Assembly: GCA_964016885.1 (NCBI GenBank)
Contig: OZ024746.1
Location: 31,186,001 to 31,250,000, forward strand
DNA: 64,000 nucleotides
Source of the DNA: Eledone cirrhosa
Lineage: Eukaryota
Direction: 5' to 3'
This document shows, piece after piece, positions 3,695-47,036 of this stretch (position 1 is the first letter of the stretch; the number at the start of each line of letters is the position of its first letter). Made by a program: the position numbers and the translations under genes. The notes under the pieces were generated by a model. It was not told the origin of the DNA, searched no databases, and saw nothing but the letters and a program-made list of their open reading frames with translations.

Positions 3695-3777
3695 GAGGGT
3701 GTTAAAGTTTGCTTGAAGAAAATATATATATATATATATATATAAAACTCTTTTAACCATCTTTTGATCTTATGTAT

Positions 3778-4614: not shown

Positions 4615-5071
4615 ATATATATATATATACATACATGTATATATATACACACATACATGTATATATATATACACACAAATGTATATGTATAAACAGAAAT
4701 GTAGATTATATACACACGCACAAACAGCTATCTGCTTTAACATTTACCTATATAACATATATATATGCATTTTATACATTTAATTATATATACATGTGTG
4801 TATGTGTGTTTATGTTAGGGGCTGTGTATGTATGTATATTTATATTAGGGGCTGTGTGTGTGTGTATTGTTACCTGTTCAATATACTCGTATACCTTACT
4901 AATTTATTGCTATGAGAGAGAGAAGAGAGATAGAGAGAATAAGAGGGAGAAATAGTGACAGGGAGGGAGAGAGAAAATGGGAGGAAGGAATAGAGACAGT
5001 GAGGGAGAGAGGGACACAGAGAGAGATGGGGGGGGGGGGGAGAAGGGAGAGAAAGAATGAGGAGATAGGGA

Positions 5072-5110
<39 letters not shown>

Positions 5111-5202
5111 GGGTAGAAGAGAAAAACAAAGGATGAAAGATAGACATAAATAAATAGAGAGATCATTGGAGAGATAGTGACTGTGTATCTGTGTATATAT
5201 AA

Positions 5203-5253
<51 letters not shown>

Positions 5254-5459
5254 GATATCAATGCGTGTGCATGCATGTGTATCCCTGTTTATCTATGTGT
5301 GTGATCAGTAGATATTGATTGTAATGAACCACTTAAAGAAGAGAATGTTGGCATTTAGTCAGAAATATTCTCAATAGAAGCTAGAGACAACAACAGCTAC
5401 ATTAGTGTGGGGGGGTGTACGTGTGTGTATATATGTGTGTGTGTGTGTGTGTGTATGTA

Positions 5460-5828: not shown

Positions 5829-5893
5829 CACATGTAGAAATCAACTATACAGATATAAATACATACATATAAATATATATATATATTTATAAT

Positions 5894-6233
5894 GGAGGCA
5901 CATGGCTTAGTGGTTAGAGCATTGGCCTTGCAATCGAAAGGTTGTGAGTTCAATTCTCAGGCCGGGTGATGTGTTGTTTCCTTGAGCAAGATACTTTATT
6001 TCACATTGCTCCAGTTTACTCAGCTGTAGAAATGAGATGATAGGGACTGAGGTCCCTATCATTCCACTGCAAAGTGGTTGTGGAGGTGCCACGGAAAAAA
6101 AGCACCCAGCACTCACTGTAAATGAGGTTGGTGTTAGGAAGGGCAACCAGCTGTAGAAATCAAGCCAGAATCAGTTCCCGTCCCACCCTTGCAAGCAGGG
6201 AAAAAGCGGACGTAAAATAAAATGAAATGATGA
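5894..6233 (+). mobile_element. tRNA-derived SINE with RTE-derived 3' tail
   Basis: A box TGGCTTAGTGG, B box GAGTTCAATTC, central CCTTGAGCAAG...ATTGCTCC segment. The 3' part GGTTGGTGTTAGGAAGGGCAACCAGC...ATGATGAT is shared with RTE 3'UTRs. A near-identical inverted copy lies at 39714-40049. Confidence 0.9.
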
Positions 6234-10024: not shown

Positions 10025-10648
10025 ATATATGCCTGTATCGCTGTTAACATTATAATGGTCTTTATATTCATTTTTATGTTTTTTATTATTATATATTTTT
10101 TCTTATATTTATTTGTGTGTGTGAGTATGTAGAGGTGTATGTATATATTTCTATTTTTGTGCATGCGTATGTATGCGTGTATGTATGTACATGTGTATAT
10201 ACGTATGATTGTGTGTATGTATGTGTATGTATATGTGTATGTTTATGTATGTGTATGTGTATATATATATGTGTGTGGTTGTATATATGTATGTCTATGT
10301 ATGGATATGTTGATATTTATGTGTGTATGTATATATATACACATATATATGTGTGTGTGTGTGTGTATATATGTGTGTGTATGTATGTGTGTATGTATAT
10401 GTATATATATATATATGTGTATGTATATAATTGTGTGTGTGTGTGTGTTTGCATGTGTGTTTTTATTTTATTTTTCCTTTCCTTCTTCCTTTTCTAGCCT
10501 CACTTTCATATAGATTGCATTTTTGTTTTTAAAATCCAATGTCAATAAATACACCAGGATTTTTTCATTCTGATGATTGAAAGCAAAATTTTTTTGCTTT
10601 TAAGAAACCACTGGTAAATGAATTAATTGCCTTATGTTGTTTATTACA

Positions 10649-35320: not shown

Positions 35321-36519
35321 ATGTCCGGTAGAATTAAATTCCGTAAATAGATTCCCTGAAAAGTAACATATCTCTCAAGAATTGGTAAAGTTGGGTATTC
35401 TTTTCTTAAAATAAAGCAATGTTATACTGTGATACTAGAGATTGGAATACTCAGCTTCCCATCCCATCTCTTCACTTCCCAGAAACCACTCAAGGAAATT
35501 AACTTTAGATTTTACATGAGAAGAACAATTCAAGCTTTGAAGTGATTTCTCTGTAAAAAGATTGGCAGCCATTTCCTGCAGAGTTTCTACTAAACAATGA
35601 AGAATGTCAGATGGGATTAAGATGTCAGAGTCTATGAACAACCAACTGAGAATGGTTTCTGTTTATCAGGAATCAACTCTTTCCAGGAGGAAACATTGAT
35701 GGAACTCTAAATATTATATTCTACAATATCAACTGACGCCTTTCTGCTTCATTTGAAGTAATTCTTCATAGTTTGGCACCAAAGAAGAAGAGCACCAGAG
35801 TCTATTATATGAGATCATACATACATACATGCATGCATATATGCATGTTATGCAAACAAAGATACATACATTACATACATTACATACATATACACACGCA
35901 CACAAACCTTCACATACAAATATACATACTCACATGCACATACAAACTTTCACATACAGATATACATACTCACACACACATGCAAAACCTTCACATACAC
36001 ACATACAAGTATATATAGTCACACACACATGCAAAACCTTCACATACACACATACAAGCATATATAGTCAGACACACACACAACCTGTACTAGCATATAT
36101 AATAAAACCTGAGTAAGAAAAAAGAAATGTTTCATTGTATTGAAATAAATTCAGTTGTTTTACTTCCTGTCTGAAAAAGTTGTGAACAGGCTTTACAAGA
36201 TGTACATATTTAATTAAGAAATATAATTTTATGTGAATTGTCTATTTAATTAAATATCCTGTATAAATATAGGTTTGAATTACATGTGTAGACATGGTTG
36301 TTGTTATGGGCACAGCATGGTTAAATAGGTAAGATGTTTGCCTCACATAAATAGTTAAGATGTTTGCCTCACATAAATAGTTAAGATGTTTGCCTCACAA
36401 TCATTAGGTCGAGGGTTCGAGCCCACTGAGGAGAATCTCATTTACCACAGTTATGGCAGAGCCCACCCCTTGTAAGTGAAACTGGGTAGACAGAGACTGT
36501 TTGGAAGCCCATCAAATAG

Positions 36520-37407
36520 ACTGCACCCACCCTATAGATCTTGCTTGCAGTCTGACCTGGACACAATGCAACAGTGGATCTCAAACTGGCAACTCAAGCT
36601 AGCTGTGGACAAGTGCACCACCATGCATTTTGGGAGTAAAAACCCAGCGTCCACATACTCCCTCCACAGCACTAATATCAAGAAGTCTTCCTGTGAACGT
36701 GACCTGGGCATTACGGTCAGCAGCGATTTGCGTTGGACGAGGCACGTCTCTAAAATTGTCAAGAGAGCCGAGGGTGTCTTAGCATCACTCAGCAAGACCT
36801 TTGTCAGCCGCTCTCCAGATATCTATTTAAGGCTGTATACAGCTATGGTGCGACCACACTTAGAATTTGCATCACCAGTCTGGAACCCCTATCTTGCTCA
36901 GGACATTGACCGCCTGGAAACTGTTCAGAGACGTGCAACCAAGCGAATACCCTCCATCAGGCATCTACCATACTCTGAGCGCCTTGCTTCCCTGGGCATG
37001 GATTCATTGAAGCTCCGACGCCTGGCAACTGACTTGGTAAACACCCACAAAATTGTTAACCATGTTGCCAACAACAACCCTGAGTGCCTTTTCGATTTCC
37101 ATGTGTCTAACACACGTGGACATGCCCACAAAGTAAGAAAACAGCACAGTTCCCATGACTTTCGGAAACATTTTTTCACGCTCAGAGTTGCTGAAGCATG
37201 GAACAAACTACCTGCATCAGTTGTTAGCTGTCGAGACACTGCATCCTTTAAGGCCTCCATGCTTCCCGAGATCCGCCAACACTACAGCTAACACATACAA
37301 ACATGTACTTCCCTGGCATTTGTGTATTATTCTATGTACTATATTGACGAGTTGTAGTGCACCTGAGCACTTTACACAATAATTTCATTATTATTATTAT
37401 TATTATT
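36520..37407 (+). mobile_element. 5'-truncated CR1-group LINE (RT C-terminal region, 3'UTR, (ATT)n tail)
   Basis: ORF 36476..37291: LQSDLD..W..NWQL.L...KC..MHFG, ERDLGI, VRPHLEFASPVWNPY, LETVQRRATK, TRGH, FFTLRV..WNKLP; uninterrupted frame; TCAAAT on both flanks (possible TSD). Confidence 0.92.
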
Positions 37408-38430: not shown

Positions 38431-38698
38431 TTATACTTTCACTCATGTAGGACACCTCGGTTATTTTTCATTTTGTAAAAAAAACCTCACTTTCTAATAA
38501 TATATATATATATATATAGAAGTGGTAACACAACAGTTAGTTCACCATATATATATATATATATATATAGATATATATATATATATACATAGTCTGGAGC
38601 TAGCTGTTGAAATGGCAAGATAGTCACACTCTACTATCCCAAGTATTGAGTACTCTGTTGAATAATCGTCTAACTAGTTTAAAACTGGTTTAATCCTG

Positions 38699-39713: not shown

Positions 39714-40049
39714 ATCATCATTTCATTTTACGTCCGCTTTTTCCCTGCATGCAAGGGTGGGACGGGAACTGATTCTGGCTTGATTTCTACAGCTGGTTGC
39801 CCTTCCTAACACCAACCTCATTTACAGTGAGTGCTGGGTGCTTTTTTGCCGTGGCACCTCCACGACCACTTTGCAGTAGATTGATAGGGACCCCAGTCCC
39901 TATCATCTCATTTCTACAGCTGAGTAAACTGGAGCAATGTGAAATAAAGTGTCTTGCTCAAGGAAACAACACATCACCCGGTCTGAGAATTGAACTCACA
40001 ACCTTTCGATTGCAAGGCCAATGCTCTAACCACTAAGCCATGTGCCTCC
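39714..40049 (-). mobile_element. tRNA-derived SINE with RTE tail (copy of 5894-6233)
   Basis: Near-identical reverse complement; ORF track 39797..40036 is nearly the same as 5907..6146. Confidence 0.92.
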
Positions 40050-40341
40050 ACATATATATACACATACACACACACACATACACACATTACATATTAAACT
40101 GTGCACTAAGCAGTTAAAATTCATATCTGAACAAACACTACAGGTTTTTAACAGTAGCTGCGAGAAATAACTATGTAAACACACACGCTGCTACATTTAA
40201 GCATGTGAAGATGCCTTGTTTATGTGTTTCTCTATAGATTGGAAAAAAACAAACATCTTGGCTTGAGTTTCATCACAAACTATGTACATTCTTCACACTC
40301 CACAAAGAAATACACAACAAAAGACTTTATATACTATGCTG

Positions 40342-43973: not shown

Positions 43974-44220
43974 GATATTAACAAATGGAAACTATATTTA
44001 TAAAACCATATTTATTTCATTATACATATTTCAAGGACACCAAGTTAAATTATGGTGTGCTTTCATCAGATAAAATATAATATAGAGCAGTTTTATAAAT
44101 AAATATTGACATACCCTTAAAGAATGCAACCATTACTGTTGGAAGCTCCCGGATAGTGGAGTTGTAGCTTTAATTATACTATTAGGTAAGTTAGTATTGG
44201 ATATTTTTAAATAAGCCATT

Positions 44221-44284
<64 letters not shown>

Positions 44285-44683
44285 GAGCAGAACAACAGAG
44301 AGAAAAAAAAGAGAGAGAGGAGAAAGAGAAAGGAGAGAGAGCGAAAACTCTAAGTCAAATCTTGTTGAATTATCTTAACATTTGAGATGAAATGAATAAA
44401 TAAAATTTGAAATGTTAATAATCATGAATGGAAGATACATGTATAATATGAGAAATTTAACCATTGTTTAAATATGATTACATGTTTAGTTAATCAGTTA
44501 AAATATTGAGATCCAACGGCTTATTTTACGTTAATGCTTATTACGTCAATGCTTATTTATAAAACTGATATATATTGTATTTTGTCTGATGAAGGCATAC
44601 CATAATTTAACTTGGTGTCCTTGAAATATGTATAATGAAATAAATATGGTTTTATAAATATAGTTTCCATTTGTTAATATCGT
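43972..44683. repeat. ~140-bp inverted repeat pair (43972-44110 / 44545-44683), each arm with a hammerhead-like motif
   Basis: Arms are reverse complements; TTTTGT-CTGATGA-AGGCATACCA...TGGTGTCCTT-GAAA-TATGTA-TA-ATGAAA. Confidence 0.85.
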
Positions 44684-44929
44684 ATTTTTACTCCAATTAT
44701 TTGTTGAGTGCTTTATATCAGTTATAAACATATTTGCTTGTTGTATCCCAACAATTTAAATAGAACTTTTACATATATATATATATATATATATTTTTAA
44801 AAAAAGGTGTTTTACTGTCAACGTTGCTAAAATATTGATTATTTCTGAGAAACAATGTTGTGTGATTGTTTTTAACAGAGATAGGGAGAGGGTAATAGGA
44901 TTAGTTTAAAAGATACAACATAACATACA

Positions 44930-45235: not shown

Positions 45236-46219
45236 GAGAGTTGCTTGAATGAGGAAGGAAATGACTCAAACATTTATCTATACAGGTGGTGTATGTGGTT
45301 GAGACTAGATGCAGCAGATTTTGCATGCATAAACAGATGTTTGGCTGCAGTTATTGCTGCTAAACACCAGCATGCACATTGTTGCATCACAAGCAGGTGT
45401 ATGCATTATGGGATAAAATTAAATTTGGAAGTGGTGGTCGTCTGTAAAAAGGTTTTCTGTAGCAATCTAGGGGGCAGGTTGGTGGTGGGGTGTATTTCTA
45501 TAAAACAAAAATATAAAAAATTAATACGATGAATACCAACAAATGTGTGTGTATGTATATGTATGGTCATGTGTGTCAATATTAGTGTGCATGTGTTGTA
45601 TATGTATATATGTGTGGATGTGTATGCGTAAGTGTGCATGTGTATGTTTGTGTGTGCATGTATATTTGTGTGTTTGCATGTACGTTTGCGCGTATGCATG
45701 TATGTTTGTGTCACACAAACATACATGCATACACACAAATTGTGTGTATGCATGTACGTTTGTGTGTGTATGGTGTATATATATGTGTGCATGTATATGT
45801 GTGTGTGTGTGTATAGATATATATATATATATGTAGGAGGCGAGTTTTATTGTAGTACAATAAAGCAATGCAGATATCGGATAAGAAGCACTCTACAGTG
45901 CTAAATAAAATATTTTTTCCTCGCACATATCCTCCCTTCGTTAATTTTCAAAATTTTTAATTTATACAGTATCTTCCAACGGTTTTCAACCCCTCTATGT
46001 AAAAAATATATCTCCTCTCAGTTATAAAAACTATCTCTTTCTCTCTATCACCCATCTCTCCCTCTCATCTCCTTCCCTTTTCATCCTCCCCCCCCCCCCC
46101 CTCTCTAAATAAAATATTTTTCCCAATATCACACATCAATCTAAAACCACTTTTCATATGTTGATTTAAAACTGCACTATCAACAAGTGTTTTTTTAGCC
46201 TTCATATCATGTTCTCCTG

Positions 46220-46286
46220 TTTTATCTGATGAAAACACAAATATTATTGCTTGATGATGTTTGTTTTTGAAATGCGCATAATAAAA
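46220..46286 (+). ncRNA. Minimal type I hammerhead ribozyme motif, copy 1
   Basis: Stem I TTTTAT/ATAAAA, CTGATGA, long stem II, GAAA, palindromic ATGCGCAT, cleavage triplet AUA. Confidence 0.7.
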
Positions 46287-46416
46287 TATATGGAACTCCT
46301 TTAACCATCTTTTGATCTTATATTATATATATATATATATATAGAAGTGGTTACACAACAGTTAGTTCACCATACCGAGAACAATTGTTTCGCCTTAGCG
46401 GATCCTCATCTCGTAA

Positions 46417-46447
<31 letters not shown>

Positions 46448-46627
46448 GTCTCAGGAAGACAGTGCGACAGATCAGGGATTTCAAGACGAGAAATAGGTAG
46501 TGACATAACTACTACTTGCTAGTCGATATATCGATTTACCATGACCAATCAACCCTCTGAAATGATCGTAAAACAATGAACTAATTAAGAACCTATCTTC
46601 GACTTCTGCTTTATTTTCATTGTTCAA

Positions 46628-46675
<48 letters not shown>

Positions 46676-46685
46676 CTTATATATG

Positions 46686-46718
<33 letters not shown>

Positions 46719-46873
46719 TCTTTACTCTCATCTCCTCCTCTTCCTTACCTTTTCCAACCCCCCCCCCACTCACTTTTTCCCAATCTCATACATCAATCTT
46801 AAATTATTTTTCATATGTTAATTTAAAACTTCACTATTCACAAGTGTTTCTTTAGCTTCATATCATGTAGCCC

Positions 46874-46944
46874 TATTTTATCTGATGAAAACGCAAATAT
46901 CATCCCATGATGATATTTGTTTTTGAAATGCGCATAATAAAATA
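46874..46944 (+). ncRNA. Minimal type I hammerhead ribozyme motif, copy 2
   Basis: Stem I TATTTTAT/ATAAAATA, CTGATGA, stem II AAACGCAAATATCATC-CCAT-GATGATATTTGTTTTT, GAAA, ATGCGCAT, AUA. Confidence 0.75.
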
Positions 46945-46974
46945 CTTGGAACTCTTTTAACCATCTTTTGATTT

Positions 46975-47036
<62 letters not shown>

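Follow-up and report, generated by a model that had tools for sequence, protein, structure and literature searches.

Two hammerhead motifs stand in direct orientation on the forward strand of the window (the whole stretch of 64,000 nucleotides of Eledone cirrhosa DNA analysed here), and the locus raises the question of whether they delimit a mobile unit or met by chance. The first-pass annotation had proposed a retrozyme-like unit that could release a circularisable RNA of 656 nt, and had named two independent insertions as the alternative. Our analysis points to the latter: judged from the sequence, the hammerheads are very probably the 3' pseudo-LTR (pLTR) ends of two 5'-truncated copies of a Hydra-clade Penelope-like element (PLE), likely inserted separately into neighbouring (TA)n tracts. 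Within this explanation, the 656-nt spacing is an accident of common target preference.

A minimal type I hammerhead combines CUGANGA and GAAA cores with an NUH site and three helices, of which stem I is open, and all of these are present in both copies. The CTGATGA cores are located at positions 46226 and 46882 and the sequence GAAATGCGCATA at 46269 and 46925, whereas the H17 positions, 46280 and 46936, place the predicted cut sites 656 nt apart.

46218..46288, + strand: hammerhead 1, with stem I at 46218-46225/46281-46288, CUGAUGA at 46226-46232, stem II at 46233-46268, GAAA at 46269-46272, the palindrome at 46272-46279 and the predicted cut after 46280
46874..46944, + strand: hammerhead 2, with CUGAUGA at 46882-46888, stem II at 46889-46924, GAAA at 46925-46928 and the predicted cut after 46936

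Both hammerheads have an 8-bp stem I, an AUA site, the palindrome AUGCGCAU and a stem III of 2 bp closed by GCGC. The two complete type I folds that had been placed here, together with their cut sites, were borne out by the located cores and by folding. Stem II had been described as a helix of about 16 bp; it is indeed long, but consists of 15 pairs with a single C.U mismatch at position 4 rather than a clean 16 bp, and its first pair is A-U in both window copies. Four paired positions of stem II differ between the copies, and pairing is kept in all of them, as claimed earlier, by changes on one side only (wobble swaps). The direct repeats around the hammerheads are present and extend slightly further than the ~190 bp first assigned to them, positions 46117-46330 and 46774-46986 forming a 214-nt alignment with 87.9% identity. 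A scan of the window with Rfam at the gathering score gave no matches. Elsewhere in the window, a loose match to the hammerhead descriptor was observed at 10564-10622, where CTGATGA lies at 10570 and stem III is poor; this match is probably a chance or decayed one. On sequence grounds, both type I folds at the locus are real and cleavage is predicted.

A single hammerhead with a 2-bp stem III is predicted to be weak by itself and would require a second copy or a protein. The palindrome of stem III and loop 3 permits dimers, and the computed energy of the AUGCGCAU duplex is -10.5 kcal/mol. Two intact same-strand cores with a self-complementary stem III are consistent with a retrozyme-like unit, in which dimeric cutting would free the 656-nt piece to be circularised and copied to new sites, as is the proposal that retrozymes derive from PLE pLTRs (bioRxiv 10.64898/2026.07.22.740005). 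The 656-nt piece also folds better than its shuffles (z -5.1); the source of this score is (AU)n hairpins together with stem II, and it was discarded as evidence because it is driven by the microsatellite hairpins. Against such a unit, the computed probability of a cross-paired double hammerhead within 46150-47000 is only about 0.01.

Examination of the surrounding DNA resolved the locus into three insertions, namely copy 1, an antisense end of a different family in the spacer, and copy 2.

45834..45899, - strand: inverted arm of insertion 1, consisting of the tail only (the ~66 nt found after the hammerhead in the element), with (TA)n in front and up to 98.5% identity to other tails
45901..46326, + strand: forward arm of insertion 1, assigned to the 5'-truncated 3' end (3' UTR and hammerhead) of a Hydra-clade Penelope-like element, younger subfamily
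46322..46343, no strand: (TA)n run ending insertion 1, recognised by sequence
46344..46408, - strand: spacer family end, in antisense: the 3' end of another high-copy family, which also inserts into (TA)n and carries a short-stem hammerhead of its own
46448..46628, no strand: single-copy DNA between microsatellites (one 23-mer probe, 1 genome match at up to one mismatch)
46627..46718, no strand: (TACA)n/(TA)n run preceding insertion 2, recognised by sequence
46722..46982, + strand: insertion 2, assigned to the 5'-truncated 3' end of another subfamily of the hammerhead element, followed by (TA)n to 47033

The forward arm of insertion 1 is 95-98% identical to six other loci over ~440 nt (best 99.5% over 206 nt) and aligns to positions 4830-5259 of the locus L031, 3' of the ORF. 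With its inverted arm, insertion 1 has the inverted-plus-tail form reported in PMC8557442. Insertion 2, for which no inverted arm was seen, is 92-94% identical to other loci over ~280 nt (best 95.6% over 205 nt). The two copies share 87.6%, whereas the arms within one insertion share 91.0-100% in all 11 of 11 loci, and we assign the copies to different subfamilies. Copy 1 extends leftward to 45834, and each copy is bounded by its own (TA)n; no empty site or target duplication was recognised. The subfamily split, the separate (TA)n bounds and the mosaic spacer thus support the alternative of two independent insertions. Local duplication of a single insertion followed by divergence would explain the direct orientation and the short distance. 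However, each copy is nearer to distant copies than to its neighbour (unless gene conversion has acted), the differences between the copies are the diagnostic positions of genome-wide subfamilies, and the flanks are not duplicated, which makes this origin extremely improbable.

The composition of the spacer bears directly on the retrozyme-like unit. Its first piece comes from a family whose probe has 11,421 genome matches at up to one mismatch (none for the control); the hammerhead core of this family is altered in the window, AUGAGGA for CUGAGGA. Hydra-like ORF pieces lie between the inverted ends of the spacer family in one of the four loci fetched, and its junction to the hammerhead family as seen in the window recurs in none of 12 loci. 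Another stub of the spacer family, 31 nt long, is found at 38519-38549 of the window. The piece at 46448-46628 resembles nothing among the fetched loci except itself, and the single genome match of its probe gives no spacer-containing unit at many loci. The first-pass annotation had itself regarded a spacer unique to this locus as fatal to its proposal, and for 46448-46628 this is what the one probe indicates. The single-copy piece alone largely refutes the retrozyme reading; in addition, the piece at 46344-46408 is another element in antisense, the copies are of different subfamilies, and the locus lacks a tandem array, in particular any head-to-tail hammerhead array of 150-450 nt, the size of the repeats that form the published animal monomers (PMC7229834). 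Since the 656-nt stretch is not a repeated unit, it lacks the defining feature of animal retrozymes as given in PMC7229834. With the single-copy and foreign pieces of the spacer, the differing subfamilies and the rare cross-paired fold taken together, a retrozyme-like unit releasing a circularisable 656-nt RNA is highly improbable, and this claim is not supported. Plant LTR retrozymes carry type III hammerheads in near-identical LTRs, along with a PBS and a PPT. A retrozyme of that kind does not fit the locus either, the hammerheads here being of type I and the repeats 87.6% alike and of different subfamilies.

Separate insertion is in agreement with the distribution of the motif in the genome, where copies were found by exact and one-mismatch pattern searches. 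A 24-mer across the 3' core has 22,841 exact matches (11,453 + 11,388) in the 3.0-Gb genome against 0 for the reversed control, and the motif is therefore not a chance one. Spacing was analysed for the first 100 listed of these 22,841 places, at the start of contig C1. Among these first 100 listed copies, minus-then-plus neighbours lie less than 6 kb apart in 32 of 34 cases, 18 of them below 1 kb; adjacent direct pairs lie 3.3-4.4 kb apart in 4 of 32, enclosing the ORF, and no same-strand neighbours are closer than 1 kb. A uniform model predicts ~87 same-strand pairs below 1 kb genome-wide by chance, and shared targets would raise this number. The motif forms the pseudo-LTR end of a high-copy Penelope-like retrotransposon inserting into (TA)n; the ORF-bearing parent, the pLTR pairs and the (TA)n targets uphold the link to Penelope-type elements suggested earlier. 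The locus is thus ordinary transposon debris, in which two out of tens of thousands of transposon ends met by chance, and it illustrates how (TA)n hot spots can create false 'retrozyme' pairs.

Other repeats were observed in the window. A 28-nt stub of the 3' end of the hammerhead family lies between microsatellites at 3746-3773. A 333-nt inverted repeat (5893-6225 and 39718-40050, 97% complementary, 33 kb apart) probably represents two copies of another young repeat, and a 271-codon open frame at 36476-37291 looks, from its sequence, like the C-terminal portion of a LINE reverse transcriptase. No host exon could be named in the ORF list for 36000-58000, which holds simple-repeat frames and LINE-like pieces.

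The parent element was identified in 20 stretches fetched around hammerhead pairs, several of which carry one long ORF 5' of the hammerhead. The longest open frames in the six loci measured have 821, 808, 775, 738, 590 and 535 codons, and in four of these six ORF-bearing loci inverted and direct pairs enclose an ORF of 738-821 codons. The encoded protein contains the motifs RW[T/I], HSDKT(NN) and YRDDG, including the change of DKG to DKT, and the linker CxCx5C is present as CNCRIKNKC. In the 821-codon ORF, a C-terminal YFG...R...E...N region follows the reverse transcriptase, and there is no N-terminal EN; the nuclease region has CxxC before E (CNLC..E) and CxH after N (N...CLH), and CCHH is absent. 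The RWK position is filled by RWT or RWI in the window family and by RWK in several homologs. Of 7,990 candidates that were scored, 25 are homologs, with a best E of 6e-135; just one of these is named, from Argonauta hians. Pfam assigned no family to the ORF protein of the family (P0001), and its RVT_1 and GIY-YIG matches were weak, each in only one of 16 aligned members; a PDB sequence search with the protein alignment yielded nothing usable, the best hit being a retron RT at E 0.012. The published Hydra-1_Obim protein resembles that of the window family by eye, but belongs to another family. By its motifs and by this likeness, rather than by a tree, we assign the parent ORF to a Hydra-clade Penelope-like element. 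An identity with the 'half-core' of Naiad was rejected, the nuclease being C-terminal. Two loci (L202:1309-3323 and L046:1715-2191) carry a different Penelope-like ORF, with YVDD and YIGET, unlike the Hydra type.

Insertion into (TA)n, the pLTR, the inverted arm, the tail and the hammerhead are all present in the family. Partial tandems have the order hammerhead, tail, 5' UTR, ATG ~210 nt past the cut, ORF, 3' UTR and hammerhead, and thus tandem hammerheads would release 3.3-3.9 kb (loci L034, L040 and L039), not 656 nt. A literature search, conducted outside Repbase, Dfam and most subscription journals, found nothing on the window family or on a natural hammerhead with a long stem II. The family is an abundant new one of a known clade, and its hammerhead is slightly unusual in shape.

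A sister Hydra-type family is represented in the window at 43975-44685 by inverted type I hammerheads (CTGATGA at 44069 on the - strand and 44586 on the + strand), with the near-palindrome AUAUGUAU. A 24-mer of this sister family has 8,199 exact genome matches, and its ORF is ~50% identical to P0001 in all 5 loci compared. At L009 and L078 (G000:C1) we observed a third family of long-stem hammerheads; its stem II starts with GGAC and has 3 pairs, a mismatch and 6 pairs. The sister families share the 8-bp stem I and the AUA site, and in their stem II a pyrimidine mismatch at position 4 separates a first block of three pairs from a second one of six. This mismatch is present in all 19 of 19 distinct sister-family motifs, and the stem letters differ between families and are still paired. 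The palindrome duplex is weaker in the sister families (-2.2).

Conservation of the fold within the family was analysed on 58 distinct extracted hammerheads. Three of them lack 3 nt in stem II and one duplicates window copy 2; after removal of these four and addition of both window copies, the alignment has 56 rows, 55 of them distinct. The search patterns by which the rows were picked prescribe the core and some stem positions, so that invariance there is no evidence; G-bearing rows were enriched deliberately. Pairing in the 56 rows amounts to 98.4% of the cells of stem I and 97.6% of those of stem II. The first pair of stem II is A-U in 27, G-U in 25, G-C in 2 and unpaired in 1 of 55 rows, the G-bearing ones being enriched, and it is A-U, G-U or G-C according to subfamily. 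The A-U pair at 10.1-11.1, considered unusual at first, is therefore present but not special: it varies by subfamily and occurs also in Hydra-1_oBim.

One might regard the fold as a relic, or a chance hairpin, on which selection has been lost in the source elements. The covariation score within the family is no higher than that of shuffles (0.153 against a mean of 0.153), with both sides changing in only 2 of 30 pairs, and of the 11 shared stem variants, 7 have A or G facing U; A-to-I editing could also produce these seven, although it could not explain the C/U variants. However, variants shared by at least three rows keep the pairing in 9 of 11 cases and rare ones in 6 of 24 (Fisher p 0.003, not a strict probability because the copies are related). 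In a set of 60 copies picked only for their 5' UTR, variation amounts to 21.7% in loop 2 and 1.6-1.7% in the stems, and the core and palindrome are intact in 55. Furthermore, two sister families retain the geometry with other stem II letters, and a relic is unlikely.

A possible copying mechanism is suggested by PAc, for which nicking of AT-rich DNA and an internal start of reverse transcription have been described, hammerhead cleavage being unneeded for copying and itself needing a protein (PMC11167929). By analogy, the GIY-YIG domain may nick AT-rich DNA, and the reverse transcriptase may start inside the RNA, 3' of the hammerhead, which would account for the tail as well as for inverted arms and truncations. 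In the complete element the hammerhead closes the 3' UTR, and partial tandems carry a further one ~210 nt ahead of the ORF. The other pLTR, at a distance of 3.3-3.9 kb, or else another RNA, would serve as the natural partner of the hammerhead. Dimers of minimal PLE hammerheads cleave weakly (PMC4209133). Compatible with separate insertions, and not exclusive of them, is a read-through of the host on the + strand that is cut twice and leaves an immobile 656-nt by-product, linear or circular. Both cores are intact, and cleavage of dimeric minimal PLE hammerheads in vitro is low but real (PMC4209133). Yet the double-hammerhead pairing is a minor computed state (~0.01), and the PAc hammerhead required a protein, with no reads starting or stopping at its cut site (PMC11167929), so that such a by-product is distinctly unlikely.

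The 5' ends of the elements were mapped in 100 of the 254 matches to the ORF start. In 68 of the 100 the copy continues across the cut site, and their templates were therefore uncut there, which fits the account of PAc in PMC11167929. At +1..+10 of the cut, 5' ends were found at 4 independent loci of 66 mapped ends (1.4 expected, P 0.054), one of them exactly at +1; the reference copy differs just past the cut, and the ends mapped there are thus blurred by a few bases. A TA-like site (+37..+43) accounts for seven of the 66 ends and the tail end (+117..+141) for 11, the latter against 3.5 expected (P 0.001 under a flat model, the intervals having been picked after viewing the data). The element at L031 spans almost exactly a single unit, bounded by tail ends on both sides. 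These peaks could reflect unit-length copying of a circle, a transcription start, or re-insertion into the element's own pLTR. It is a rather doubtful suggestion that the hammerheads represent an undescribed type I subtype, in which a long stem II, made up of three pairs, a fixed pyrimidine-pyrimidine mismatch and further helix in three families with different letters, replaces the usual loop 2 contact and the cut is at AUA, and that the 5' ends at the tail end record unit-length copying from re-ligated circular RNA. At a single locus (L164:830-1730, G000:C2:216010800-216013400), we observed an inverted insertion of 204-nt tandem units without a hammerhead, each beginning ~4-5 nt past the hammerhead cut and ending just short of the ATG; a small template, circular or concatenated, could be their source.

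With 22,841, 11,421 and 8,199 probe matches, at least three very abundant hammerhead families of Hydra type are present in the genome, and ORFs are open in some of them. Few families of the Hydra clade have been published: File S1 of PMC8557442 has 27, one of them from an octopus. The window family may be useful for the question of the role of hammerheads in PLEs, and of whether a stem II mismatch can replace the contact of loops 1 and 2.

Animal non-LTR retrozymes (Cervera and de la Pena 2020, PMC7229834; Li et al. 2026, bioRxiv 10.64898/2026.07.22.740005) likewise have direct type I hammerheads separated by non-coding DNA, and a low GC. However, they are tandem repeats of one 150-450-nt unit (PMC7229834), whereas only the hammerhead ends repeat here and the spacer does not recur. 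PAc, a Poseidon element of the green anole (Frangieh et al. 2024, PMC11167929), resembles the window family in its pLTR hammerhead and AT-rich targets, and in a genomic tail that marks the internal start of reverse transcription on templates uncut at the hammerhead; it belongs to another clade, and its ORF begins inside the hammerhead rather than ~210 nt past the cut.

Published PLE-type hammerheads share with ours the type I fold, the short palindromic stem III and the enlarged stem II. They too occur mostly as single motifs from truncated elements; some pairs flank an ORF at a distance of ~3 kb, and others lie on opposite strands, separated by 100-700 bp. Their stem II has 6-8 bp with a bulged base, in contrast to 15 pairs here, where the bulge is not needed, and they have a conserved G10.1-C11.1 pair, where ours is A-U, G-U or G-C by subfamily (27, 25 and 2 of 55 in the alignment) and A-U in both window copies. 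An architecture like that of the window family has been described for PLEs in PMC4209133 and PMC8557442.

The closest likeness is with the Hydra-clade PLEs (Craig et al. 2021; PMC8557442). Two DNA probes for the window motif had no matches in its supplement, which points to another family. Common to both are a single ORF with a reverse transcriptase and a C-terminal nuclease, DKT, the CxCx5C linker, CxxC before E and CxH after N in the absence of CCHH, (TA)n targets, a hammerhead near the 3' end, and inverted 5'-truncated arms with a tail; Hydra-1_Obim of Octopus bimaculoides also has A-U as the first pair of stem II. The window family differs from the clade as described there in its unit of 3.3-3.9 kb (generally <3 kb), in RWT/RWI for RWK, in a tail of ~90 nt past the (TA)n-bounded end (30-40 bp), in the AUA site (GUH in all listed Hydra hammerheads) and in a stem II of 15 pairs, which lies outside the 3-7 bp of the Hydra set in File S2. 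The last distinguishing feature is the number of copies, which exceeds 22,000.
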